Origin: Alkalilimnicola ehrlichii MLHE-1
GTDB lineage: Bacteria > Pseudomonadota > Gammaproteobacteria > Nitrococcales > Halorhodospiraceae
DNA: 32,000 nucleotides
Direction of reading: 5' to 3'
Assembly: GCF_000014785.1 (NCBI RefSeq)
Contig: NC_008340.1
Coordinates: forward strand, 390,001-422,000
The notes below the pieces were generated by a model. That model saw only the letters and a list, made by a program, of their open reading frames with translations, did not search any database and was not told where the DNA came from. A program made the translations under genes and the position numbers. Numbering within the stretch: position 1 is the first letter of the stretch; each line of letters starts with the position of its first letter. This document shows, piece by piece, positions 7,779-24,499 of this stretch.

Positions 7779-9461
7779 ATGACGGCGGCTCGAACAGACA
7801 AACCACAGCAGGGATCCACCCAGTCGAAGGCGCGCCTTTTTACCTCGCTGGCGGCGATCACCACGGTGCTCACCGCGCTGGTGATCGGCCTGACCCTGCA
7901 CCTGCAGGCGGCCGACCGGGGGCAGCTGGCGGCCGGCCAGGGTCTCGAGGTGGAGCTGCTGGAGCTTCGTGACCAGGCGGCGCGCGCCGGGCGCGGCGAC
8001 CCGGTGGAGGTGGCCCGGCTGGAACAGGCGCTGGCCGATGTCAGGGGCCATGCCGACACCCTAACGTCGGTCGACCCGGTGGCCGGATACGGCGCCCCGC
8101 CGGCGCTGGTGCAGGCCCGTCGCACGGTCAGCGAGGGCCTGCCGGCGGTCACGTCGGCCGGCGAGCGGCTGTTGAGCCGGCTGGCTGGCGCCGCGGGCCA
8201 GGAGGCGCCGGACTTGGCGGTGCGGGAGGTTGCCCGGGAGTTGCTCCGCACCAGTGACCAGCTCCGCGAGCCCGCCGGCGAACTCAGTACCCGGTTGCGG
8301 CAACGGGCCGATGACCGCTGGCTGCAGCCGGCGCTGGCGGGCGGACTGGGCGGCATCACACTGATTCTGCTGGCCAGCGCCGCGCTCTTCTCTACCCGGG
8401 TGTTCCGCGAGGTGCTGGCGGCCCGCGCCGAGGATAAGCGACGGGTGGACGAGGAGTCGCGGCGCAACCAGGAGGCCATCCTCAAGCTGCTCGACGAGCT
8501 CGAGGACCTGCGCGAGGGGGACCTGCGCACCCAGGCCTCCGTGGGCGAGGAGATCACCGGCGCCATCGCCGACGCCTTCAACGACGCCATCGACAACCTG
8601 CGCAGCCTGGTGGCCACCATCAACCGCACCGCCGAGCAGGTCTCCGCCTCCGCCGAGCAGACCCAGGCCACCGCCACCCGGCTCGCCGAGGCCTCCGGCC
8701 AGCAGGCCCAGCAGATCAGCAGCGCCTCCACCGCCATCGAGGACATGGCCCAATCCATCGACGAGGTCTCCCGCAACGCCGAGGAGTCGGCGCGGGTCGC
8801 CCAGCAGGCGGTGAATATCGCCACCAAGGGGGCGGAGACGGTGCGGGCCACCATCGAGGGCATGGACACCATCCGCGAGCAGATCCAGGAGACCGCCAAA
8901 CGCATCAAGCGCCTGGGTGAGTCCTCCCAGGAGATCGGCAACATCGTCGAACTGATCAACGACATCTCCGATCAGACCAATATCCTCGCGCTCAACGCCT
9001 CCATCCAGGCCGCCATGGCCGGCGAGACCGGGCGCGGGTTCGCGGTGGTTGCGGACGAGGTGCAGCGCCTGGCCGAGCGCTCGGGCAACGCCACCAAACA
9101 GATCGAGGCATTGGTCAAGACCATTCAGACCGACACCAACGAGGCGGTGCTGTCCATGGAGCAGAGCACCGCCGGGGTAGTGGAGGGGGCGCAGCTCGCC
9201 GAAAACGCCGGCGATGCCCTGCGCGAGATCGAATCCGTCTCCACTGACCTGGCGGCGCTGATCCAGAGCATCTCCCGGGCCTCCCGCCAGCAGGCCAATG
9301 CCGCGGCCAACGTCTCGGACACCATGAAGGTCATCCAGGGGATCACCGACGAGACCTCGGCGGGCACCCGGGAGACGGCCGACTCCATCGGAAACCTCAC
9401 GGCGCTGGCCAGCGATCTGCGCAGCTCCGTGGCCGGGTTCAAACTGCCGGACCATGACTGA
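7779..9461 (+). CDS. pilJ: methyl-accepting chemotaxis-type receptor PilJ
   Basis: 560-aa ORF. Two TM segments (LAAITTVLTALVIGLTL and GGITLILLASAALF) flank a roughly 150-aa periplasmic region. The cytoplasmic signalling domain has the invariant hairpin IGNIVELINDISDQTNILALNASIQAAMAGETGRGFAVVADEVQRLAERS. Confidence 0.9.
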   Translation: MTAARTDKPQQGSTQSKARLFTSLAAITTVLTALVIGLTLHLQAADRGQLAAGQGLEVELLELRDQAARAGRGDPVEVARLEQALADVRGHADTLTSVDPVAGYGAPPALVQARRTVSEGLPAVTSAGERLLSRLAGAAGQEAPDLAVREVARELLRTSDQLREPAGELSTRLRQRADDRWLQPALAGGLGGITLILLASAALFSTRVFREVLAARAEDKRRVDEESRRNQEAILKLLDELEDLREGDLRTQASVGEEITGAIADAFNDAIDNLRSLVATINRTAEQVSASAEQTQATATRLAEASGQQAQQISSASTAIEDMAQSIDEVSRNAEESARVAQQAVNIATKGAETVRATIEGMDTIREQIQETAKRIKRLGESSQEIGNIVELINDISDQTNILALNASIQAAMAGETGRGFAVVADEVQRLAERSGNATKQIEALVKTIQTDTNEAVLSMEQSTAGVVEGAQLAENAGDALREIESVSTDLAALIQSISRASRQQANAAANVSDTMKVIQGITDETSAGTRETADSIGNLTALASDLRSSVAGFKLPDHD

Positions 9462-12400
9462 TTCCGCCGCCATCCACCGCAGCGGCCTGGGCTGGGTCCG
9501 CCACGAGCTCAGGGAGGCCCTGCGCCAGGCCGCCGATGCCCTGGAGTGCGCCAGCGAGGACCGGGAGGCGGTGGACGACCTGGAGGCCTCGCTCGAGGCG
9601 CTGCGCCACGTCCGTGGTGTGCTCGCCCTGCTCGGCCTGGAGGGCGGTCAACGGCTGGTCGAGGCGATGGAACAGTTGACCTCCCGGCTGCTGGACGAGG
9701 CGATCGCGGAACCGGCGCCGGCGCAGGAGGCGCTGATGGGGGCGCTGCTGCAACTGCCGGACTACCTGGAGCAGGTGCAGTCCGGGCGCCTGCGCGACCA
9801 CCCGGTGCACCTTCTGGGGCTGATCAACCGGCTGCGTCAGGCGGGTGGCGAGCCGCCTCTGTCGGCCAGCGCCTGGTTCCGCCCGGACCCGGCAGCGGAC
9901 GGCGGGGAGGACCAACGGGCCCATGAGGGCGAGCCCGGCGGCGAGCGCCTGGCCGCTGCGGCGCGGCGACTGCGCGCGCCCTACCAGCGGGCCCTGCTGG
10001 GCGTCCTGCGGGCCGAGCAACCGCAGGCGGACCTGGGGCGGTTGCGTGCCGTTCTCGATGAGCTGGACCGGGCCTGCACGGACGATCAACAGGGCGCGCT
10101 CTGGTGGATCGCCGGGGGGGTGGTGGAGGCCCTGGAGCAGGGCCTGCTGACCCTGGATCAGTCCCTGCGCCTGCTGCTCGGGCGGGTCGACCGCGAACTG
10201 CGCCGGGTGGCCGACACCGGGCAGGACGACCAGGGCGGCGAGGCCCGCGCCGGGCTCCTGCGCGAGCTGCTCTACCACATCGCCCGGGCCCGACCGGAGA
10301 CGGAACGGCTCCGGGCCATCGCGGAGCGGTACCGGCTGGAGGAACAGCTCCCGCCGGCGACCGAGGCCGGGCCACAGGGCCTCAACGGCGAGGTGATGGA
10401 GGCGGTGGCCGGCGTGCTGCGCGAGGAGATCGCCTCGGCGAAGGATGCCCTGGACCTTTTCGCGCGCTCAAATGGTGAGGACACCGAGCGGCTGGATTCC
10501 CTGCAGACCCTGCTGGAGCCGTTGGCCCATACCCTGGACACCCTGGGGCTGGAGCCCGCGGTCCGCGAGGTGCGGGAGCAGATGGCTACCGTTGACGCCA
10601 TCCGCGGCGGCGAGCGGCCGGCCGATGAGGGCAGCCTGGACCAGGTGGCGCGCGCCCTGCTCTACGTGGAGGCCGCGCTGCAGGGGCGGGTCGAGCACAT
10701 CACCGGGGCCGGCCCGGCGCGGGCCGCCACCCGTGTCCAGGCACCGGGGGAAGCGCCCGGAGAGACCGAACAGACCGTGTTCGAGGCCGAGTACCGCCAG
10801 GCGCTGGCGCAGGCGCTGGACGAGGCGCTGAACGGCTTCGAACGCATCGAGCAGGCGCTCACCCGCTACATCGATAACGCCGATCACGATGCCCTCAGGG
10901 AAGCGGGCGACAGCCTGGAGGAGGTCGGCGGGCTGTTGCGCGTGGTCGGGCTGGAACGGGCCGATGCGGCCCTGCGCCGGCTGGTGCAGGCGATCCGGGA
11001 CGGCCTGGCGCCTGCGGAGGCCGGCTTACTGGAACCGCTGGCGGAGGCCGTCACCGGACTGGAATACCACCTCCAGGGGATCGCCGAGGACCGGGCGGAC
11101 CGTGACGCCGCCCTGGCCGTGGCCGAGGCGGCGGCGGAGCGCCTGAGCGAGGCCGTGCCGGCGACCGGGGCGGTGGACGAAGCGGCCGCGGAGACCGGCG
11201 GCGAGCCGGTTGGGCCCCCGGATGCCGAGACCGCGGCGGACACCGCCCCGGCCCCAGAGGAAGAGGCGCCGGCGGCGGACATCCCGGTCACCGAGGAGCC
11301 CATCGAAGCGGAGCCGATTGGAGCGGAGCCCGCAGCAGAGGAGCCTGCAGCAGAGGCACCGGCAACGGAGGGGCCCGCGTCGGCGCCCCCGGCCGCCACG
11401 CGCCAGCAGGCCGGCACCCCGGACCCCCAGGTGCCGGCCCTGGCCGAGGATTCGGACCCGGAGATCGTTGAGATCTACCTGGAGGAAGTCGGCGACCTGG
11501 CCGGCCCCCTGCGCGAGTCCTTCCAGCGCTGGCACCGCAACCCCGACGATCACGACGCCCTGGTGGAGACCCGGCGCGCCTTCCACACCCTGAAGGGCAG
11601 CGGCCGGCTGGCGGGCGCCCTGCTCATGGGCGAGATGGCCTGGGCGGTGGAGAACCTCCTCAATCGGGTCACGGCCGGCAAGCTCACCCCCGGGCCGGAT
11701 CTCTTTGCCGTGGTGGCGGAGGCGCTCGATCACCTCCCCGGACTGGTGGCCCACCTCCGGGACGGGACAGCGCCGCCGGCCGGGGTGCGGCCGCTGATCC
11801 GGCGCGCCGCGGTGCTGGCCGATCCCGCTCTGGACGACTGGCTGCCCCCGGTGGCGGCCGAACCGGCGCCGGTGGTCCCGCCATCGGAGGAGGCGTTGGC
11901 CGAGAGCGGGTCGGAGGCGGAAGAGGAGGAGCCGGAGACGGCCGTGTCCGACGAGCCCCGCGAGCCCACGGAACCGACAGAAGCAGCGGCGCCCCAGGAA
12001 CAGGACGTGGATCCGGCGCTGCTCGAGATCTTCCATACCGAGAGCGAGACCCATCTGGCCACCGTCCGCGAGTTCGTCGGACGCTGCCATACCGAGGGGC
12101 AATGCGAGATCGGTCAGGGGTTGAACCGGGCCCTGCACACCCTGGTGGGGAGCGCGCGGACCGCCGGCATCGACGGTATGGCGCGCTTGGGCCGGGCGCT
12201 GGAGACCCTCGCCCGCCACCGGATGGAACTGCGGCAACCGCTGAGTCCGGCCGAGGTGGATGCCTTCAGCCGGGGCGTGGACCTGCTGCACCGCTACGTC
12301 GAGGGCGCCGGGGTGGCGAGCGCCGAGCAGCCGGACGACGAGGCCGATGAGCTGATCCGGGAGCTGGCGGACCTGGAGGCCGAGAGCGCGGCGGGATCGG

Positions 12401-14958
12401 CCATGGAACTCGACGACGAAGAGGCGGCCCGGCGCTGGACCGCCAGCGACGGCATGGATCCGGACCTGGTGGCGCTGTTCACCGAGGAGGCCGAGGACCT
12501 GCTCGGCTTTCTCGAGACCACCATTCACGACTGGGCCTCGGGCGCGGGCGGCGAAGGCGCCCTGCGGGAGGTCCACCGCTCACTGCACACCCTCAAAGGC
12601 GGTGCCCGGCTGGCCGGCTTCCGGGCCATTGGCGATCTCTGCCACGCCCTGGAGTCCAGGGCCGCCGAGGTGGCCGGGGCCCCCCAGAGCGCCGATGCGG
12701 CCTATTTCTCCCTGCTCAACGCCGGCCTGGATCGCCTGGCGGAGATGACCGAGGAGGTCAAGCAGGGCTACTGGCCGCAGGCGGACGAGGCCCTGCTGCG
12801 CCGGGTCCGTGGCGAGGGGCCGGCCTCGCCCCAGGCGGAGGCGCCCGAGACGGAAGCGCCCCAGGCGGAGGAGCCTGCGACGCAGCTACCCGAGCCGGAG
12901 GAACCCGAGGCCGAGACCGCCGGGCCGGCCCCTGTCGAAGCCCCGCAGCCTCCGGCCCCAGAGCCAACGGTGGAGACCGCGGAGCCCCCCCCGCCGGCAG
13001 AACCCCTCGCCGACGAGGCCCCGGTCTACGAGGCGGAGTCGACCCCGCCCGAACCGGAGGCCGCGGAGCGTGCCGGGGAACAGCCGCGCGTGGCGCACCA
13101 GGACGCGGTGCGGGTGCGCGCGGAGCTGCTGGATCAGCTGGTCTCCTACGCCGGCGAGGTCAGCATCGTTCGGGCCCGCCTGGAGCAGAACAGCGGCGCC
13201 CTGCGCTTCAACCTCAATGAACTGGACGAGACGGTCAACCGTCTGCGCCGGCAGTTGCGCGACCTGGAGATCGAGACCGAGGCGCAGATCCTCTACCGCT
13301 TCAACCGCGACCAGGAGGATGCCCGCCGGGCGGAATTCGACCCTCTGGAACTGGACCGTTTCTCCCACATCCAGGAGCTCTCCCGCGCGCTGGCGGAGAG
13401 CGTCTCTGATTTGAGCAACCTCGAGGAGATGCTCGGCTACCTGGCCCGCGAGTCCGAGTCCCTGCTCACCGACCAGGCCCGGCTCAACGCCCAGGTGCAG
13501 GATGGACTGATGCGCACCCGCATGGTGCCCTTCGCCAACCTGCTGCCGCGGTTGCGCCGGATCATGCGCCAGACCGCGCAGGAGCTGGGCCGAAAGGCCG
13601 AGCTGAAGCTGCTGGGCAGCCAGGGGGAGCTGGATCGCACCGTGCTCGAGCGGCTCACCCCGCCGCTGGAGCACATGCTGCGCAACGCCCTTTCCCACGG
13701 CATCGAGCCGCCGGAGGAGCGCCGGGCGGCGGGCAAGGCGGAGACCGGCACCGTCTCGCTGGATGTCTACCGCGAGGGGGCGGACATCGTGGTCACCGTC
13801 AGCGACGATGGCCGCGGCATCGACCCGGACGCCATCCGCGCCAAGGCCGAGGCCGCCGGTCTGGTGCGCCCGGACGATTCGCTCAGCCGAAAGCAGGCCC
13901 TGCGGCTGATTCTGGCCTCGGGCCTGTCCACCGCCGAGTCGCTGACCCAGGTGGCGGGGCGCGGTGTGGGGATGGATGTGGTGGACACCGCCATCCGTGA
14001 GCTGGGCGGTAACCTGGAGATCGAATCCGAGCCGGGCGCGGGCAGTACCTTCACCATCCGGCTGCCCTTCACCCTGGCGATCAACCACGCCCTGCTCTGC
14101 GAGGTGGGCGATCAGGTCTACGCCATCCCGCTGTCTAGCATCGAGGGGGTGGCGCGCATGGACCGGCAGGAGGCGCTGCAGCAGCTCGCCGATCCCGAGG
14201 GGGCCCGGTACGAGTTTGCCGGCCAGCGTTACGACCTGCGCAGCCTGCAGGTGCTGCTGGGGGGTGGCCGGGCGCAGTGGCCGGCCGGGGGGCGGCCGGT
14301 GCACCTGCTGCTGGTCAACGCCGGGCGCAGGCGCCTGGCGCTGCAGGTGGATGCCATCCGTGGCAACCAGGAGATCGTGGTCAAGTCGGTGGGGCCGCAG
14401 ATCAGTGCCGTGCCCGGGATCTACGGCGCCACGGTGATGGCAGACGGCCGCGTTATCCTCATTCTCGATGTCTCCGCGCTGGCCCGGATGGACGCCGAGC
14501 AGGCCGCCGTGCCGCACTGGCTGCCGGAGGCCGAGGCGGTGCCGGAGCGGGACACCGAGCGGCCGTTGGTCATGGTGGTGGACGACTCCATCACCATGCG
14601 CAAGGTCGCGACCCGCCTGCTGGAGCGCAACCACATGGACGTGGTCACCGCCCGCGATGGCATGGAGGCGCTGACCCGGCTGGAGCAGCAGGTGCCGGAC
14701 GTCATGCTGTTGGACATCGAGATGCCGCGCATGGACGGCTTCGAGCTGGCCACGCACATGCGCAATCAGCCGGAGTTCAGTGAGGTGCCGATTATCATGA
14801 TCACCTCCCGGGTCGGTGACAAACACCGCCGCCGCGCCGAGGACATCGGCGTCCAGCGCTACATGGGCAAGCCGTACCAGGAGAGCGAACTGCTCGCGGC
14901 CATCCGCGAACTGGTGGAGGGCCGTCGTCCGCAGGATGAGGAGGAGCGCCCGTCATGA
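9454..14958 (+). CDS. chpA: hybrid CheA-type histidine kinase ChpA/PilL (multi-Hpt, kinase core, CheW domain, C-terminal receiver)
   Basis: 1834-aa ORF. Three canonical Hpt sites: FHTLKGSGRLAG (His codon 11584-11586), LHTLVGSARTAG (12136-12138), LHTLKGGARLAG (12586-12588). Kinase core with HMLRNALSHGIE, DDGRGID and GRGVGMD. CheW-like segment ALLCEVGDQVYAIPLSSIEG. Receiver VMVVDDSITMRK...MLLDIEMPRMDGFE...ITSR. Overlaps the pilJ stop by 8 nt. Confidence 0.9.
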   Translation: MTDSAAIHRSGLGWVRHELREALRQAADALECASEDREAVDDLEASLEALRHVRGVLALLGLEGGQRLVEAMEQLTSRLLDEAIAEPAPAQEALMGALLQLPDYLEQVQSGRLRDHPVHLLGLINRLRQAGGEPPLSASAWFRPDPAADGGEDQRAHEGEPGGERLAAAARRLRAPYQRALLGVLRAEQPQADLGRLRAVLDELDRACTDDQQGALWWIAGGVVEALEQGLLTLDQSLRLLLGRVDRELRRVADTGQDDQGGEARAGLLRELLYHIARARPETERLRAIAERYRLEEQLPPATEAGPQGLNGEVMEAVAGVLREEIASAKDALDLFARSNGEDTERLDSLQTLLEPLAHTLDTLGLEPAVREVREQMATVDAIRGGERPADEGSLDQVARALLYVEAALQGRVEHITGAGPARAATRVQAPGEAPGETEQTVFEAEYRQALAQALDEALNGFERIEQALTRYIDNADHDALREAGDSLEEVGGLLRVVGLERADAALRRLVQAIRDGLAPAEAGLLEPLAEAVTGLEYHLQGIAEDRADRDAALAVAEAAAERLSEAVPATGAVDEAAAETGGEPVGPPDAETAADTAPAPEEEAPAADIPVTEEPIEAEPIGAEPAAEEPAAEAPATEGPASAPPAATRQQAGTPDPQVPALAEDSDPEIVEIYLEEVGDLAGPLRESFQRWHRNPDDHDALVETRRAFHTLKGSGRLAGALLMGEMAWAVENLLNRVTAGKLTPGPDLFAVVAEALDHLPGLVAHLRDGTAPPAGVRPLIRRAAVLADPALDDWLPPVAAEPAPVVPPSEEALAESGSEAEEEEPETAVSDEPREPTEPTEAAAPQEQDVDPALLEIFHTESETHLATVREFVGRCHTEGQCEIGQGLNRALHTLVGSARTAGIDGMARLGRALETLARHRMELRQPLSPAEVDAFSRGVDLLHRYVEGAGVASAEQPDDEADELIRELADLEAESAAGSAMELDDEEAARRWTASDGMDPDLVALFTEEAEDLLGFLETTIHDWASGAGGEGALREVHRSLHTLKGGARLAGFRAIGDLCHALESRAAEVAGAPQSADAAYFSLLNAGLDRLAEMTEEVKQGYWPQADEALLRRVRGEGPASPQAEAPETEAPQAEEPATQLPEPEEPEAETAGPAPVEAPQPPAPEPTVETAEPPPPAEPLADEAPVYEAESTPPEPEAAERAGEQPRVAHQDAVRVRAELLDQLVSYAGEVSIVRARLEQNSGALRFNLNELDETVNRLRRQLRDLEIETEAQILYRFNRDQEDARRAEFDPLELDRFSHIQELSRALAESVSDLSNLEEMLGYLARESESLLTDQARLNAQVQDGLMRTRMVPFANLLPRLRRIMRQTAQELGRKAELKLLGSQGELDRTVLERLTPPLEHMLRNALSHGIEPPEERRAAGKAETGTVSLDVYREGADIVVTVSDDGRGIDPDAIRAKAEAAGLVRPDDSLSRKQALRLILASGLSTAESLTQVAGRGVGMDVVDTAIRELGGNLEIESEPGAGSTFTIRLPFTLAINHALLCEVGDQVYAIPLSSIEGVARMDRQEALQQLADPEGARYEFAGQRYDLRSLQVLLGGGRAQWPAGGRPVHLLLVNAGRRRLALQVDAIRGNQEIVVKSVGPQISAVPGIYGATVMADGRVILILDVSALARMDAEQAAVPHWLPEAEAVPERDTERPLVMVVDDSITMRKVATRLLERNHMDVVTARDGMEALTRLEQQVPDVMLLDIEMPRMDGFELATHMRNQPEFSEVPIIMITSRVGDKHRRRAEDIGVQRYMGKPYQESELLAAIRELVEGRRPQDEEERPS

Positions 14959-16287: not shown

Positions 16288-16291
<4 letters not shown>
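15545..16291 (-). CDS. rsmE: 16S rRNA (uracil1498-N3)-methyltransferase RsmE
   Basis: Track ORF 15545..16801 trimmed to the ATG at 16291 (MSRARIHVDTPL...). RsmE blocks LVQGVARGERMDFTVQKAVELGV, LLIGPEGGLSDAEV and LGPRILRTETAG. ATGA overlap with the bioA stop. Confidence 0.88.
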
Positions 16292-17637
<1,346 letters not shown>

Positions 17638-17686
17638 GGGTATCGTTTTGGGGTTGGCGTGGGTGTGAGTGTGAGATTGTTGTGTC

Positions 17687-17814
17687 GGGGCTTCGTGGGG
17701 GTGTGGGTCGGGGGAGCGGGGGCTTCCGTTACGGATACGCTGCAAGTACGTCCCTGTAGCTCGTAGGCGGCATCCCTGCCGCCTACGATCCGTAACGGAA
17801 GCCCCCGCTCCCCC
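17687..17814 (-). repeat. structured palindromic repeat, copy A (G-run tract 17687-17714; 27-bp arms 17710-17736 and 17788-17814; 51-nt core 17737-17787)
   Basis: Arms GGGGGAGCGGGGGCTTCCGTTACGGAT and ATCCGTAACGGAAGCCCCCGCTCCCCC are perfectly complementary. The core holds an 11-bp hairpin at 17762-17787 with a 4-nt loop, which reads GGGA on the minus strand. The strand given is only relative orientation, defined as the strand on which the loops read GGGA. Confidence 0.9.
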
Positions 17815-17987
17815 TGTCATCCGTTTGGGGCCGGGGTGTCCCCGATGCCGTCTCCTTCGTTAGCCCTACTCCTCTCGGCGCTGGTGATGCGCACGCAGAC
17901 ACGCCGGTGCCCCCAGCTATCTGTTCGCCGCCTTGCATTGGGAGGGGGACACTCAAAGGAATGACACCGGCGCCAATCATGTGTCGT

Positions 17988-18147
17988 GGTCTTCTCCGGG
18001 GCGGGGATAACGGTCGCGGACCGTAAGCGGCAGGGATGCCGCTTACGAGCTACAGGGACGTACTTGCTGCGTGTCCGCGACCGTTATCCCCGCCCCGGAG
18101 AAGACCCCCCTCCGAAGCCCCCGAGAGCCCCAAAGGCCCGAAGGCCC
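17988..18147 (+). repeat. structured palindromic repeat, copy B (34-bp arms 17988-18021 and 18073-18106; 51-nt core 18022-18072; C-run tract 18105-18147)
   Basis: The arms are perfectly complementary. Core CGTAAGCGGCAGGGATGCCGCTTACGAGCTACAGGGACGTACTTGCTGCGT is 48/51 identical to the reverse complement of the copy A core. One of the three differences is a compensated base-pair change in the 11-bp hairpin. Confidence 0.9.
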
Positions 18148-18186
18148 GAAGCCGGCACATGCTCCGAAACCTACCGGGCCCGACAC

Positions 18187-19521
18187 TCAACCAACCAGGG
18201 ACTTGACGAAAACCCGCGACGCCCGATTCTGATCGTAGGCCCTGCGCCGGGCCTCGGGCAGGTCCTCCGGCGCGGCCGGCTGGAACCCCCGCTCCTGGAA
18301 CCAGTGCGCCGTCCGGGTCGTCAGCACGTAAAGCCGGTCCAGCCCTTCCGCCCGGGCGTCGGCCTCCACCTGGGCCAGCAGGGCGTCGCCCCGGCCACCG
18401 CCCCGGTAATCGGGATGCACCGCGAAGCCCGCCAGCTCGCCCGTGGTCGAGCCCGGGATCGGGTAGAGCGCCGAGCAGGCGATAATGCTGCCATCGCGCT
18501 CCACCACAATGAAGTGGTCGATATCCGTCTCCAGCAGATCCCGCGGCCGGCTCACCAGCGTGCCATCCCGCTCCAGCGGCTCCAGCAGGGCCACAATCCC
18601 CGGCACATCCTCCGGCGTGGCGCGGCGCTGGGTCTCAAACCGCTCCGGCGTCACCAGCGTCCCCACCCCGTCGCGGGTAAACAACTCCAACAGCAGGGCC
18701 CCGTCTCGGTGCCGGTCCAGCAGGTGCACCCGATGCACCCCGGAACTGCACGCCCGCAGCGCGCGCTCCAGCAGGCGGCCGGTCTCCTTCGTCAGGCAGC
18801 GCGGCGGCGCGTTCAGCAGGGCCCGGACCTGGCTCAGCGTCATCTCGCCCACCCGCTGGCCCCGGTCATCGCAGACCGACTCGCCCTCCTGCAGAAAGAT
18901 CAGCTTGTCGGCCCGCAACGCCCGCGCCGCCTCCAGCGCCACCTCATCGCCGGCCAGGTTGAACACCTCGCCCGTGCGCGAACAGCCCAGCGGCGAGAGC
19001 AGCACCATATCGCCATCGTCCAGGCGGGCGCGGATGCCCTCGGCATCCACCCGGCGCACCTCACCGGTGTGCTGGTAGTCCACCCCGTCGCGCACCCCCA
19101 GGGGCCGGGCCGTCACCAGATTGCCGGAGGCCAGTCGCAGGCGCGCGCCGGCCATCGGCGAATTGGCCAGGCCCATGGTGAACAGCGCCTCGATCTCCAG
19201 GCGCACCGCGCCCACCGCCTCCTTCACGCAGGCCAGGGCCGCATCGTCGGTGATCCGCAGGCCGTTGACATAGCGCAGCTCGGCGCCGCGCTCGCGCAGG
19301 CGCGCCTCCACCTGCGGCCGGGCCCCGGGCACCAGCACCAGGCGCACACCCAGGCTGGAGAGCAGCGCCAGGTCGTGGATGATGTCGGGGAAGTCGCCGT
19401 CCTGCAGCGCCGCGCCGGAGAAGGCCACCACAAAGGTGCGCCCCCGGTGGGCGTTGATATAGGGCGCGCTGTTGCGGAACCAGCGCACGTAGAGTTCCGG
19501 GTCCAGATCGCTGGTCTTCAT
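18187..19521 (-). CDS. argA: amino-acid N-acetyltransferase (N-acetylglutamate synthase)
   Basis: 444-aa ORF. N-terminal amino-acid-kinase-like domain (FRNSAPYINAHRGRTFVV, LVLVPGARPQ) and C-terminal GNAT domain (ELAGFAVHPDYRGGGRGDALL). Confidence 0.9.
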   Translation of the reverse strand: MKTSDLDPELYVRWFRNSAPYINAHRGRTFVVAFSGAALQDGDFPDIIHDLALLSSLGVRLVLVPGARPQVEARLRERGAELRYVNGLRITDDAALACVKEAVGAVRLEIEALFTMGLANSPMAGARLRLASGNLVTARPLGVRDGVDYQHTGEVRRVDAEGIRARLDDGDMVLLSPLGCSRTGEVFNLAGDEVALEAARALRADKLIFLQEGESVCDDRGQRVGEMTLSQVRALLNAPPRCLTKETGRLLERALRACSSGVHRVHLLDRHRDGALLLELFTRDGVGTLVTPERFETQRRATPEDVPGIVALLEPLERDGTLVSRPRDLLETDIDHFIVVERDGSIIACSALYPIPGSTTGELAGFAVHPDYRGGGRGDALLAQVEADARAEGLDRLYVLTTRTAHWFQERGFQPAAPEDLPEARRRAYDQNRASRVFVKSLVG

Positions 19522-21544: not shown

Positions 21545-21573
21545 TTGGTGAACGCGGGCGGGGGTGCGACAAT
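21545..21573 (+). promoter_or_regulatory. possible sigma-70 promoter for rlmI (TTGGTG - 17 nt - GACAAT)
   Basis: The hexamers are 17 nt apart. The -10 element ends 38 nt before the rlmI ATG, and GAGGAGG lies at 21599-21605. Pattern match only. Confidence 0.25.
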
Positions 21574-21611
21574 GCCGCCCCGCCCACCAAGCCCGCTTCG
21601 AGGAGGTCCCG

Positions 21612-22823
21612 ATGACGGCAGCATTGCCCCCATTACGCCTGAAACCCGGTGAGGACAAGCGCCTGCGCGCCGGCCACTTGTGGGTGTTCAGCAACGAGGT
21701 GGATATCGACGCGACCCCGCTGAAGGCCTTCGAACCGGGCCAGGACGCGCTCCTGGTGGACAGCCGCGGCCACGCCCTGGGCACGGTGTACGTCAACCCG
21801 GGCTCGCTGATCTGCGCCCGGCTGGTGAGCCGGGACAGCCGGTACCGGCTGGATGAGTCGCTGCTGGTCCACCGGCTGAAGCTGGCGCTGGGCCTGCGGG
21901 AGCGGTTGTTCGATGCGCCCTATTACCGGCTGGTGCATGGTGAGGCGGACGGCCTGCCGGGGCTGGTGATCGACCGGTTCGGTGATGCCTGCGTGGTGCA
22001 GGTGAACACGGCGGGGATGGAGCGGGTCCGCGACAGCATTGTCACAGCGCTGGGCCGGGTGCTGGGTGAGGGGCCGGTGCTGTTGCGCTGTGACAGCGCG
22101 GTGCGCGAGCTGGAGGGGCTGACGCGGTATCAGGCCTGGGGCAGTGGGCCGGAGGCGCAGACCCTGGAGGTGGTGGAGAACGGGGTGCGCTTCCAGGTGC
22201 CCGCGACCACCGGGCAGAAGACCGGCTGGTATTACGACCACCGGATGAACCGTCAGGCGCTGCGGCCCTGGGTCCCGGGGCGGCGGGTGCTGGATGTGTT
22301 CAGCTACATGGGCGCTTGGGGGGTGCAGGCGGCGGTGGCCGGCGCGGCCGAGGTCTTCTGCGTCGACAGCTCGGAGCAGGCCCTGGACGGTGTCGCGGAG
22401 AATGCCGCCCTGAATGGCGTGTCCGACCAGGTGGCGGGGGTACAGGGGGACGCCTTCGATGCCTTGGCGGAGTTGCGCCAGGCCAATGAGCGCTTCGATG
22501 TGGTGGTGGTGGACCCGCCGGCCTTTATCAAGCGCAAGAAGGATTTCCGTCAGGGTTTCAAGGCCTATCAGCGGTTGAACCGGATGGCGATGCAGTTGCT
22601 GAACAAGGAGGGCCTGCTGGTGACGGCCTCCTGCTCGGCGCACCTGCCGGAGCAGCGGCTGCTGGACGCGGCCCAGGCGGGGGCGCGCCACCTGGAGCGC
22701 AGCCTGCGCGTGGTGGCCCTGGGTCACCAGGGGCCGGACCACCCGGTGCACCCGGCGATCCCCGAGACCCGCTACCTGAAGGCCGCCTTCTGCCGGGTGT
22801 TGCCGGCGGGGAGCATGCCTTAG
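21612..22823 (+). CDS. rlmI: class I SAM-dependent 23S rRNA (cytosine-C5) methyltransferase, RlmI-like
   Basis: Track ORF trimmed to the ATG at 21612 (MTAALPPLRLKPGEDKRLRAGHLWVF). PUA-like N-terminus, YRLVHGEADGLPGLVIDRFGD, QKTGWYYDHR, and the SAM-MTase block DVVVVDPPAF, collinear with E. coli RlmI. Confidence 0.8.
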   Translation: MTAALPPLRLKPGEDKRLRAGHLWVFSNEVDIDATPLKAFEPGQDALLVDSRGHALGTVYVNPGSLICARLVSRDSRYRLDESLLVHRLKLALGLRERLFDAPYYRLVHGEADGLPGLVIDRFGDACVVQVNTAGMERVRDSIVTALGRVLGEGPVLLRCDSAVRELEGLTRYQAWGSGPEAQTLEVVENGVRFQVPATTGQKTGWYYDHRMNRQALRPWVPGRRVLDVFSYMGAWGVQAAVAGAAEVFCVDSSEQALDGVAENAALNGVSDQVAGVQGDAFDALAELRQANERFDVVVVDPPAFIKRKKDFRQGFKAYQRLNRMAMQLLNKEGLLVTASCSAHLPEQRLLDAAQAGARHLERSLRVVALGHQGPDHPVHPAIPETRYLKAAFCRVLPAGSMP

Positions 22824-22886: not shown

Positions 22887-23024
22887 GGGTCTGCCGGGGG
22901 CTTCGGGGGGTGCGGGTCGGCCCTTGGGGTGCTTCGGTTGCGGATACGCTGTGAATACATCCCTGTACGCTCGAAGGCCGCATCCCTGCGGCCTACGATC
23001 CGCAACCGAAGCACCCCAAGGGCC
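22887..23024 (-). repeat. structured palindromic repeat, copy C (G-run tract 22887-22916; 27-bp arms 22919-22945 and 22998-23024; 52-nt core 22946-22997)
   Basis: Arms GGCCCTTGGGGTGCTTCGGTTGCGGAT and ATCCGCAACCGAAGCACCCCAAGGGCC are perfectly complementary. Core ACGCTGTGAATACATCCCTGTACGCTCGAAGGCCGCATCCCTGCGGCCTACG aligns with the copy A core. Same orientation as copy A. Confidence 0.9.
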
Positions 23025-23142: not shown

Positions 23143-24399
23143 TCACCGCTTCATCGAGTCAAAGAACTCGCCGTTGGTCTTGGTGTCCTTCAGCTTGTCC
23201 AGCAGGAACTCGATGGCGGCCAGGTCGTCCATCGGGTGCAGCAGCTTGCGCAGGATCCACACCTTCTGCAACTCGTCCGGCTTCATCAGCAACTCCTCGC
23301 GGCGGGTGCCCGAACGGTTGATGTTCACCGCCGGGTAGATCCGCTTCTCGGAGATGCGCCGGTCCAAGTGCAGCTCCATATTGCCGGTGCCCTTGAACTC
23401 CTCGTAAATCACCTCATCCATCCGCGAGCCGGTGTCCACCAGCGACGTGGCGATGATCGACAGACTGCCGCCTTCCTCCACATTGCGCGCCGCACCGAAG
23501 AAACGCTTCGGCCGGTGCAGGGCATTGGCGTCCACACCGCCGGTCAGCACCTTGCCCGACGAAGGCACCACCGTGTTATAGGCCCGGGCCAGACGGGTGA
23601 TGGAATCCAGCAGGATCACCACATCCTTCTTGTGCTCCACCAGCCGCTTGGCCTTCTCGATCACCATCTCCGCCACCTGCACGTGGCGGCTGGCCGGCTC
23701 GTCGAAGGTCGAGGAGACCACCTCGCCGCGCACCGAGCGCTGCATCTCCGTGACCTCCTCCGGGCGCTCGTCGATCAGCAGCACGATCAGATAGGTCTCG
23801 GGGTGGTTGGCGGTGATGCTCTGCGCGATGTGCTGCAGCAGCATCGTCTTACCCGCCTTGGGCGGCGAAACCAGCAGGCCGCGCTGGCCCTTACCGATGG
23901 GGGCGATCAGGTCGATGATCCGCGCGGTGAGATCTTCCGTGGAGCCGTTGCCGCGCTCCATGCGCATACGCTCGGTGGCGTGCAGCGGCGTGAGGTTCTC
24001 GAACAGCACCTTGTGCTTGGCGTTCTCCGGCGGCTCGAAGTTGATCTCATTGACCTTGAGCAGCGCGAAGTAGCGCTCACCATCCTTGGGCGGGCGGATC
24101 TTGCCCGCGATGGTGTCGCCGGTGCGCAGCGCGAAGCGCCGGATCTGGCTCGGCGAGACGTAGATATCGTCCGGCCCCGCCATGTATGAACTGTCGGCAG
24201 ACCTCAGAAAGCCGAAGCCATCCTGCAGGATCTCCAACACGCCATCGCCGTAGATGGGTTCGCCACCTTTGGCCTGCGACTTGAGTATGGAAAAGATGAC
24301 GTCCTGCTTGCGCGAGCGGGCCGTCCCCTCCACGCCCAGTTCCTGGGCCAGTTTCATCAGTTCAGCGGCGGGTTTCTGTTTTAGTTCCGTCAGGTTCAT
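23143..24399 (-). CDS. rho: transcription termination factor Rho
   Basis: Track ORF trimmed to the ATG at 24399 ([25 protein letters not shown]...). Long blocks are essentially identical to E. coli Rho: [86 protein letters not shown]. Confidence 0.97.
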
Positions 24400-24499
24400 G
24401 GTGTCTGCTTTCGGATCATGGCGGGGTCGGGCAAAGCGCACCGGGCGGTGCCTTTGCGACTGGGAGTCTGGATACAGGTGCTGTTTGAGCTGGGGAGGC

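Follow-up and report, generated by a model that had tools for sequence, protein, structure and literature searches.

A mobile, YPAL-like hairpin repeat of Alkalilimnicola ehrlichii MLHE-1 with a predicted dual CsrA/RsmA site at its apex

The stretch of the Alkalilimnicola ehrlichii MLHE-1 genome analyzed in this work (contig NC_008340.1, positions 390,001 to 422,000; hereafter the window, 32,000 nt in length) carries three copies, named A, B and C, of an intergenic palindromic repeat, in which a conserved, structured apex is placed on top of a long stem of variable sequence. The comparative analysis showed that this repeat is a small, non-coding, non-autonomous palindromic unit inserting into intergenic DNA, and it is very probably a distant, shorter and GC-rich variant of the mobile repeat known as YPAL, RU-2 or Ysr224. 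On one of its strands (referred to here as the folding strand) two apex loops resemble the sites bound by CsrA/RsmA proteins, and the reading that we favour, with a probability of roughly 0.55, is that of a YPAL-like mobile element whose folding-sense RNA hairpin presents a dual CsrA/RsmA site.

Structure of the repeat and polarity of its fold

A repeat search recovered copy C with its arms and core, copy A in the same orientation and copy B inverted, in agreement with the preliminary description of this DNA. The copies and their parts are as follows:

22919–23024, folding ("GGA-sense") strand minus, co-oriented with rho: copy C, whole palindrome (repeat search)
22919–22945: left arm of copy C (stem P1), 27 bp, perfect
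22998–23024: right arm of copy C (stem P1), 27 nt, 100% complementary to the left arm, 52 nt between the arms
22946–22997, minus: conserved apex (core) of copy C, 52 nt
22972–22997, minus: hairpin P2 of copy C, 10-bp stem with one U.U mismatch
22982–22987: P2 loop of copy C, AGGGAU on the minus strand, inside CAGGGAUG
22956–22967, minus: hairpin 2 of copy C, reading UACAGGGAUGUA, loop GGGA
22892–22918, minus: G-rich flank of copy C (C-rich 3' tail on the folding strand), homologous in A and B
17710–17814, folding strand minus, co-oriented with argA and bioA: copy A, covariance model R1 85.8 bits
17683–17709, minus: flank of copy A common to the copies
17988–18106, folding strand plus, antisense to argA and bioA: copy B, covariance model R1 85.3 bits
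18107–18130, plus: flank of copy B common to the copies, CCCCCTCCGAAGCCCCCGAG...

The arms of copy A (17710–17736 and 17788–17814) are 27 nt in length, 100% complementary and 51 nt apart, and those of copy B (17988–18021 and 18073–18106), inverted in orientation relative to A and C, are 34 nt long and perfect. The units measure 105, 106 and 119 nt, or approximately 130–145 nt including the common flank of about 25 nt, which is homologous in all three copies and in the A. ehrlichii genome belongs to the unit; the homology of 17683–17709 and 22892–22918, proposed earlier, was found to be real in the repeat search. Covariance model R1 detected exactly three copies in the window (E-values of about 1e-17 to 1e-19), matching copy C at 22934–23009 of the minus strand with 95.4 bits. 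The hairpin energies of the two senses of copy C are -91 and -85 kcal/mol, and the fold z-scores of both strands against shuffles are -6.6 and -7.3. According to the fold predictions, the apex forms on the folding strand a three-way junction with two small hairpins atop the long stem, and consists of the 10-bp P2 with a freely covarying stem, the short hairpin 2, and a 3-bp helix closing hairpin 2 with a UUCAC bulge. In copy C the folding-strand core reads CGU-CGGCCGC[AGGGAU]GCGGCCG-UCGAGCC-UACA[GGGA]UGUA-UUCACGGCGU.

A core-pattern scan of a genome collection gave at least 120 loci, and at least 240 loci together with a metagenome scan, in which a different pattern was used (at least 127 matches). 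Among the matches listed, the genome loci span many gammaproteobacterial orders, and their hosts are Marinobacter, Halopseudomonas, Ectothiorhodospiraceae, Thioalkalivibrio, Thiohalobacter, Lysobacterales, Alcanivoracaceae, Microbulbifer, Porticoccaceae, Zobellella and other Aeromonadaceae, Moraxellaceae, Methylococcaceae, Legionellales, Sedimenticola, Sodalis and others. In almost every locus a core of about 52 nt lies between inverted arms (median 24 bp, the longest about 50 bp), and the core with both CAGGGAYG motifs, noted previously for copies A and C, is conserved far outside the A. ehrlichii genome. The outer arms differ between copies and genomes, with only the 3–9 bp adjoining the core being semi-conserved. 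Model R1 added about 30 further copies in the fetched loci, which do not match the scan pattern, and some loci of metagenome-assembled genomes (MAGs) contain 3–5 copies per 8 kb. Neither E. coli genomes nor 2.9 million viral contigs yielded a match to the element.

Stems are perfect in 63 of 116 copies, and 104 mismatches were counted in 2481 pairs. On the strand carrying CAGGGATG, the genome loci gave 48 G.T, 25 G.A, 9 G.G, 8 A.C, 6 C.T and 1 C.C mismatches (G.T vs. A.C, p = 5e-8; G-containing vs. C-containing, p = 2e-12), and the metagenome loci, an independent sample, gave 53 G.T, 19 G.A, 4 G.G, 14 A.C, 6 C.T and 1 C.C on the same strand (G.T vs. A.C, p = 2e-6; 76 G-containing vs. 21 C-containing, p = 2e-8). 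A folded single strand tolerates G-containing mismatches, and their complements are the worst ones. This asymmetry of the stem mismatches identifies the CAGGGATG strand as the folding strand, on which P2 also shows tandem G.A pairs and recurrent U.U. The A.A mismatch reported on the plus strand of copy C is present, and it corresponds to U.U on the folding strand, which is the usual state of that position across the family. It is thus quite likely that the element acts as a single strand, either RNA or DNA, with a fixed polarity (in C and A the minus strand, in B the plus strand).

Stem turnover, mobility and relation to YPAL/RU-2/Ysr224

The comparison of copies A and C had previously been presented as direct evidence of covariation. 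The arms are indeed identical at 18 of 27 positions and all 9 differences are mirrored in the partner arm, because both copies are perfect palindromes; the 7 substitutions and one 1-nt indel between the cores and the swap of a G-C to a C-G pair in the inner hairpin are present as well. What stands is a real, repeated, structured and mobile unit, but the A/C arm comparison is weak as evidence of RNA-type covariation, because transversions make up 8 of the 9 changes and, across the family, each copy has outer arms that are largely its own. That a single strand folds is indicated by the mismatch spectrum and by the inner hairpins.

At the level of the family, the alignment of 108 copies revealed standard pairs in 94.8% of the stem cells as compared with 67% in shuffles (0 of 500 as high), 731 cells changed on both sides vs. 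186 in shuffles, and a covariation score of 0.688 vs. 0.08–0.15 with the partners slid. RNAalifold agrees with the stem structure, and in P2 both-side changes across the family were found for 6 of the 10 stem pairs. The arm check at orthologous sites, suggested in the preliminary description, was performed on seven locus pairs with both flanks matching: changes on both sides were found in 59 arm pairs and changes on one side in only 5. No arm change was found at a flank identity of 89–91%, 4–6 of 28 pairs had changed at 82–87%, and most pairs had changed at 72–80%. The stem is therefore kept complementary in place as its sequence turns over. Many of the orthologous arm changes consist of transversions or of patches of several bases, so that selection by itself probably does not account for all of the turnover. 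A likely contributor is the hairpin-templated correction of quasi-palindromes, which is well established as a mutational mechanism, and replacement by other copies is another possible one.

Two Halopseudomonas species (L008:4005-4113 and L107:4943-5057) share a site with flanks 83–87% identical, at which the arms are about 50% different and the P2 stems wholly different. The element at this site turns over much faster than its surroundings, or is replaced.

The closest homologue of the RlmI encoded in the window (91% identity) is located on two contigs of a relative (L121 and L122); the next ones, 64–65% identical, are those of Aquisalimonas, Arhodomonas, Spiribacter and Ectothiorhodospiraceae. 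On L121/L122 the gene order is the same as in the window (chpA-cheW-rsmE-bioA-argA-argE-SH3-rlmI-rho-trxA), and model R1 found no copy there. The genes and spacers concerned are:

16288–17637, minus: bioA
18187–19521, minus: argA
21564–22823, plus: rlmI-like rRNA methyltransferase gene, convergent with rho
23143–24441, minus: rho, whose transcript would read copy C in the folding sense
bioA–argA spacer: 38 nt in the relatives, 549 nt in the window (copies A and B)
rlmI–rho spacer: 70 nt in the relatives, 319 nt in the window (copy C)
17676–18186 (ends approximate): insertion of about 511 nt comprising A, a 173-nt spacer and B, head to head

As the syntenic relative lacks all three copies, A, B and C are insertions, and the presence/absence comparison that had been proposed as a check of mobility gave a positive answer. 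An earlier link of the repeats to breakpoints of gene order was abandoned, as the relative has the identical gene order without the elements. Copies A and B either arrived as or now form one head-to-head block of about 511 nt. Their spacer (17815–17987, 173 nt) matched nothing in the rest of the window or in the fetched loci, and gave no Rfam, promoter or terminator call. Candidate target duplications at the window copies are weak (TGTC and TCT, 3–4 nt), the intergenic DNA of the relative being too diverged to fix the junctions. Clustering of the open reading frames (ORFs) within 3 kb of 120 loci revealed no recurrent partner protein gene; the sole recurrent cluster was that of ABC-transporter ATPases, which is expected by chance. 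A replication-strand bias, assessed via local GC skew, was not significant (p ~0.06–0.11).

An empty site in L012 for the second copy of L117 was considered and discarded, since the loci are not collinear there. The origin of arms as inverted duplications of flanking genes was considered for one case (L109:1-320, 130-bp perfect arms over the start of a LysR-type gene), but these arms are an assembly fold-back artefact, because the arm begins with the very first base of a MAG contig; repeats that form hairpins in this way may give rise to similar artefacts when metagenomes are assembled.

At least ten loci carry two copies, 85–210 nt apart (L022, L085, L031, L050, L051, L096, L008, L024, L035 and positions 17710–18106 of the window), and 10 of 11 close pairs are divergent by the folding strand. 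Within a pair the two copies differ in sub-type, in arms and in P2 stems, as is the case for REP/BIME dimers, and the spacers are unrelated between genomes. The RAYT-mobilised REP/BIME/REPIN elements are likewise short extragenic palindromes, which occur as singletons and as head-to-head dimers of two sub-types, and a strand-specific single-strand fold is plausible for both. However, in REPs the palindrome itself is conserved, whereas the family described here conserves the apex and leaves the stem free. Moreover, unlike in GTAG-tagged REP/RAYT systems, the family consensus is CGTC/GACG, with GTAG present in some copies only (it is incidental in copy A), and no RAYT-like gene was seen adjoining the copies in the 3-kb neighbourhoods (a genome-wide RAYT search was not performed).

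The relation to a known repeat was indicated by several comparisons. At gathering thresholds, Rfam gave nothing in the window, and at E-value thresholds, apart from Ysr224, there were generic long-hairpin (miRNA precursor) matches only. Copy C matched RF02770 Ysr224 ("Yersinia sRNA 224") on the plus strand at 34.3 bits (E = 1.2e-6), below the gathering score of 70, with an alignment clearly homologous across the core; copies A and B score 17–23 bits. A blastn search with the core consensus against plasmids found Yersinia plasmids, on one of which the same place is matched on opposite strands by Ysr224 (133.9 bits) and by R1 (61.7 bits, E = 1.5e-13). The core is also contained (...gtaaagCGTCCGCGCCAAGGATGGCGCGGCTCGAGCCTACATGGATGTATTTACGGCGTctttac...) in the Y. 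pestis repeat RU-2, 168 nt in length and given by Delihas in Table 1b of PMC2759123; this repeat is the YPAL miniature insertion sequence of De Gregorio et al. 2006. YPAL/RU-2 was described as a repeat of about 168 bp resembling transposable elements of the miniature inverted-repeat type (MITEs), occurring in Yersinia and Erwinia carotovora, with internal inverted repeats, without TA termini, with known filled and empty sites, and co-transcribed with upstream genes, which it possibly stabilises (PMC2229807). Ysr224 is known as a temperature-responsive small RNA (sRNA) (PMC9029176), is among the most prevalent Rfam sRNAs according to the literature on them, and is multi-copy in Y. ruckeri, with different expression profiles of particular copies (PMC12112432).

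The window element shares with YPAL/RU-2/Ysr224 the homologous apex, CGTC-hairpin(CANGGATG)-CGAGCC-TACANGGATGTA-TTTACGGCGT, and, with YPAL, the form of a long, intergenic, multi-copy hairpin that is not AT-rich, has no TA terminus, contains internal inverted repeats and shows filled and empty sites. The homology is confined to the core, and the arms and outer parts are not alignable. The window copies are shorter (105–119 nt plus a flank of about 25 nt vs. 167–168 nt), their perfect, GC-rich arms have no sequence relation to those of YPAL, and their host is a halophilic, Ectothiorhodospirales-like bacterium and not an enterobacterium, while the literature examined places YPAL only in Yersinia and Erwinia carotovora. 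We regard the element as a distant relative, because the Rfam threshold and the length are missed and yet the apex is common. Other 100–150-nt hairpin repeats co-transcribed with their neighbours are the MITEs Correia/NEMIS of Neisseria and ERIC of enterobacteria, whose RNA hairpins alter how mRNA is processed or how stable it is (NEMIS through RNase III and ERIC, depending on orientation, through RNase E; PMC2229807). Nevertheless, they show no sequence similarity to the window family, and have conserved terminal inverted repeats, TA target duplications and no GGA loops.

The plasmid NZ_CP007231.1 of Yersinia similis (L123) carries a 167-nt YPAL copy bracketed by a directly duplicated terminator-like hairpin (aaaccgcctttatggcggttt, at 1421–1441 and 1605–1625), a duplication that fits the long dyad-symmetric target duplications reported for YPAL. 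Immediately beside this copy lies a ryfA RNA (1127–1410; Rfam, 179 bits).

Apex loops and competing explanations

On the folding strand both apex loops read C-A-N-G-G-A-N-G, and their GGA triplets are 23 nt apart. The six positions of loop 2 that were left free in the scan read A-N-G-G-A-N in 122 of the 127 matches listed, with N being G, U, C or A. In the 30 model matches missing the scan pattern, GGA is kept (29 of 29 and 30 of 30), CA is kept almost always and the N positions vary, while the stem of hairpin 2 covaries from UACA/UGUA to CCCC/GGGG, GGCC/GGC or GCAC/GUGC. A spacing of 23 nt between GGA triplets suits one CsrA dimer, and a dual-site spacing rule of 10–60 nt was reportedly formulated by Mercante et al. 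in 2009; the sequence criterion for CsrA sites, i.e., at least two loop A(N)GGA motifs per molecule with a spacing of 10–60 nt, describes what is found in this unit. In the consensus obtained for CsrA/RsmA by systematic evolution of ligands by exponential enrichment (SELEX), RUACARGGAUGU, ACA and GGA are invariant and the GGA is located in a hairpin loop (PMC4347634). This consensus is matched at 11 of 12 positions by hairpin 2 of copy C (UACAGGGAUGU), in which only the leading R is absent. Judging from these motifs, the predicted site has a little under an even chance of being bound by CsrA/RsmA at the RNA level.

Two copies carry insertions placed exactly within a GGA loop, i.e., one of 51 nt in loop 1 at L094:6080-6206, adding a further GGGCAGGAUGCCC hairpin, and one of about 83 nt inside loop 2 at L107:5200-5358. 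The GGA loops may be insertion hot spots, or the module may be growing by added GGA hairpins.

The presence of A(N)GGA in short-hairpin loops is shared with the CsrB/CsrC and RsmX/Y/Z/W sponges and with CsrA-bound mRNA leaders. In contrast to the sponges, the window element has only two sites in each unit, lacks its own promoter, is dispersed and mobile, stands atop a 27–34-bp stem, and is not homologous to any Rsm/Csr family at Rfam thresholds (RsmW gave a weak match of 21 bits). Literature searches on CsrA in connection with REPs or MITEs, or on the core sequence, found nothing relevant.

In the mechanism that we propose, selection on the folded strand would maintain the stem of the inserted unit, and hairpin-templated correction of the palindrome would probably assist in this. 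The folding-sense RNA would form a very stable hairpin, which, as the motif match and the published work on YPAL suggest, may alter the decay or processing of the host transcript, namely the 3' end of the rho mRNA in the case of copy C and the argA–bioA spacer in the case of copy A. Its two GGA loops, 23 nt apart, could serve as a dual-site, high-affinity platform for one CsrA/RsmA dimer, and each transcribed copy might place its neighbours under Csr/Rsm control or titrate the protein.

Several observations weigh against an RNA element of this type. The tandem orientation of the copies with respect to neighbouring genes (whose calls in foreign loci were heuristic) is random, with same/opposite counts of 23/32 and 17/17, so read-through would produce the "wrong" strand about half of the time. 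The asymmetry of mismatches holds for both directions of the neighbouring genes (13:2 and 19:5), and being independent of them it fits a strand-specific mobilisation step at least as well as selection on read-through RNA; a first hint of stronger asymmetry in co-oriented copies (p = 0.034) failed to replicate. The Rfam Ysr224 model was built on the opposite (CAUCC) strand, a literature search found no report of CsrA/RsmA binding, none of the papers examined connects YPAL or Ysr224 with CsrA, the promoter scan showed no sigma-70-like promoter adjoining the window copies, and across genomes no conserved sequence was found outside the arms. Furthermore, the first scan pattern forced both GGA motifs, and the loop-unbiased material is that of the model matches missing the pattern and of the metagenome scan.

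Among the alternatives, the best placed, though in our opinion unlikely, is a selfish single-stranded DNA (ssDNA) transposition substrate, the apex of which would be recognised by a trans-acting enzyme on one folded strand, as in IS200/IS605, REP/RAYT and attC; a dimeric enzyme would then be bound by the two identical loops, whose similarity to CsrA sites would be a coincidence. If only the copies with a folding active strand were propagated, a G.T-rich mismatch spectrum would result. The presence/absence polymorphism, the random orientation relative to genes and the independence of the strand asymmetry from the direction of host transcription all suit such a substrate, as do the head-to-head heterotypic dimers, which resemble the REP/BIME organisation (PMC3733652), the variable target duplications of YPAL (3–26 bp, at or adjoining dyad symmetry; PMC2229807), and the duplicated terminator hairpin flanking the 167-nt element of L123. 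Integron attC sites offer a parallel, as in them the structure of one folded strand is conserved and the sequence of the long, imperfect or perfect stem is free; however, their conserved boxes are located at the stem base and their centre is variable, which is the reverse of the window element, and there is no integrase or cassette context here. The lack of a recurrent protein gene near the 120 loci speaks against a mobilised substrate, yet it is neutral for an element mobilised in trans, and no orientation bias relative to GC skew was found. More difficult to reconcile with this alternative are the conservation of the core across orders, as transposase-recognised ends are usually lineage-specific, the exact coincidence of the variable and invariant loop positions with the CsrA consensus, and the paired arm changes at orthologous sites, which need something acting in place and not a copying-time filter alone.

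It is improbable that the perfect arms are solely a by-product of DNA-level palindrome correction (replicative template switching between the arms) and the stem is functionless, in which case mirrored substitutions would say nothing about a folded RNA. The predominance of transversions among the A/C arm differences (8 of 9), the multi-base patches changing together on both arms at orthologous sites (L092 vs. L118), the divergence of the arms at least as fast as that of the mostly coding flanks, and the established nature of quasi-palindrome correction are all consistent with such a process, but it explains neither the residual G.T, G.A and G.G mismatches on one defined strand nor the conservation of the apex and loop motif across orders. 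Palindrome correction is better seen as a contributor to the proposed mechanism than as its rival.

An independent sRNA gene of the Ysr224 type, with its own promoter and a base-pairing target, is very improbable. Ysr224 is catalogued as temperature-responsive (PMC9029176), its copies differ in expression profile in Y. ruckeri (PMC12112432), and the divergence of 10 of 11 close pairs in the folding sense looks as if transcription started from a central promoter; however, no conservation is seen upstream of the 5' arm, no promoter-like site or terminator after the element was found, the spacers of paired copies are unrelated between genomes, and several copies per 8 kb in some genomes together with insertion polymorphism are traits of a repeat and not of a gene.

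The terminator role implied by the preliminary description, i.e., a bidirectional terminator or insulator between convergent genes, is the least probable, since the great stability of the hairpin in both senses (z ~-7), the location of copy C between convergent rlmI and rho and the enrichment of convergent contexts in one sample (23 vs. 11) are set against the lack of a U-tract (T-run) after the stem in either sense in 116 copies, 0 sites called by the terminator scan at the window copies, stems of 27–34 bp with a 52-nt structured apex unlike intrinsic terminators, the reversed context enrichment in the second sample (10 vs. 19), many copies inside operons 14–36 nt before the next start codon, and the strand-asymmetric mismatches, which a symmetric role would not yield.

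Gene context and meaning of the family

Copy C lies 95 nt beyond the rlmI stop codon and 118 nt beyond that of rho, and copy A is 72 nt upstream of the bioA start codon; the true start of rlmI is probably later than 21564, because the protein of the relatives has 403 aa. Further genes of this neighbourhood are trxA, bioA, argA and argE. The gene context of the window copies was described correctly, but a position at gene 3' ends is not a stable property of the family: convergent and divergent contexts number 23:11 in one sample and 10:19 in the other.

Copies just downstream of rho, like that at 22919–23024 of the window, were also found in two Marinobacter genomes (L092:1065-1141 and L118:264-340), in which the orientation of the core relative to rho is opposite to that in the window. 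Chance, a preference for a common target or inversion of the core between its arms could each account for this shared position with an opposite core. The L118 element is accompanied, at a distance of about 150 nt, by a run of several dozen identical bases (L118:1-110, poly-G on the strand shown), probably an artefact of assembly or masking.

The bioA leader that separates the start codon from copy A (17638–17709) is C/A-rich and G-poor, and no Shine-Dalgarno sequence is obvious in it. On the folding strand, each of the three copies also has a C-rich and G-poor 3' tail, a composition reminiscent of Rho loading sites. Elsewhere in the window, three tandem 15-nt units (CGCCCCAGGCGGAGG / CGCCCGAGACGGAAG) are located at 12827–12886 within a chpA-like ORF (9454–14958, 1834 aa), probably encoding a repetitive Pro/Glu/Ala-rich linker.

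An intergenic repeat family that has a relative in the literature is an ordinary kind of finding; what is, as far as the literature searched shows, undescribed is how widely it occurs, the reversed arrangement in which the apex is conserved and the stem free, and the presence of CsrA-type loops. Regardless of CsrA, the YPAL/RU-2/Ysr224 family is extended from Yersinia and Erwinia to much of Gammaproteobacteria, the Rfam Ysr224 model is narrow and may be built on the non-folding strand, the family provides a clean natural example of stems remaining complementary despite sequence turnover, and the strand test based on the mismatch spectrum may be applicable to other repeat families.

We tentatively put forward the possibility that a mobile family has spread a dual-site, high-affinity CsrA/RsmA module through the intergenic DNA of many gammaproteobacterial orders, including Marinobacter, Halopseudomonas, Ectothiorhodospirales, Lysobacterales and Yersinia. 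If this is true, each insertion could add an adjacent transcript to the Csr/Rsm regulon, the copies, numbering tens to hundreds per genome, would together constitute a distributed sponge for CsrA/RsmA, and both the accumulation of YPAL-carrying mRNAs in Yersinia and the nature of the orphan sRNA Ysr224 would be explained. Binding of CsrA/RsmA by the loops would make this a mobile element equipped with a platform for a global post-transcriptional regulator, would offer bacteria a simple route for gaining, losing and shuffling members of the Csr/Rsm regulon, and would supply a protein-titrating RNA for lineages in which the canonical sponges are poorly known.

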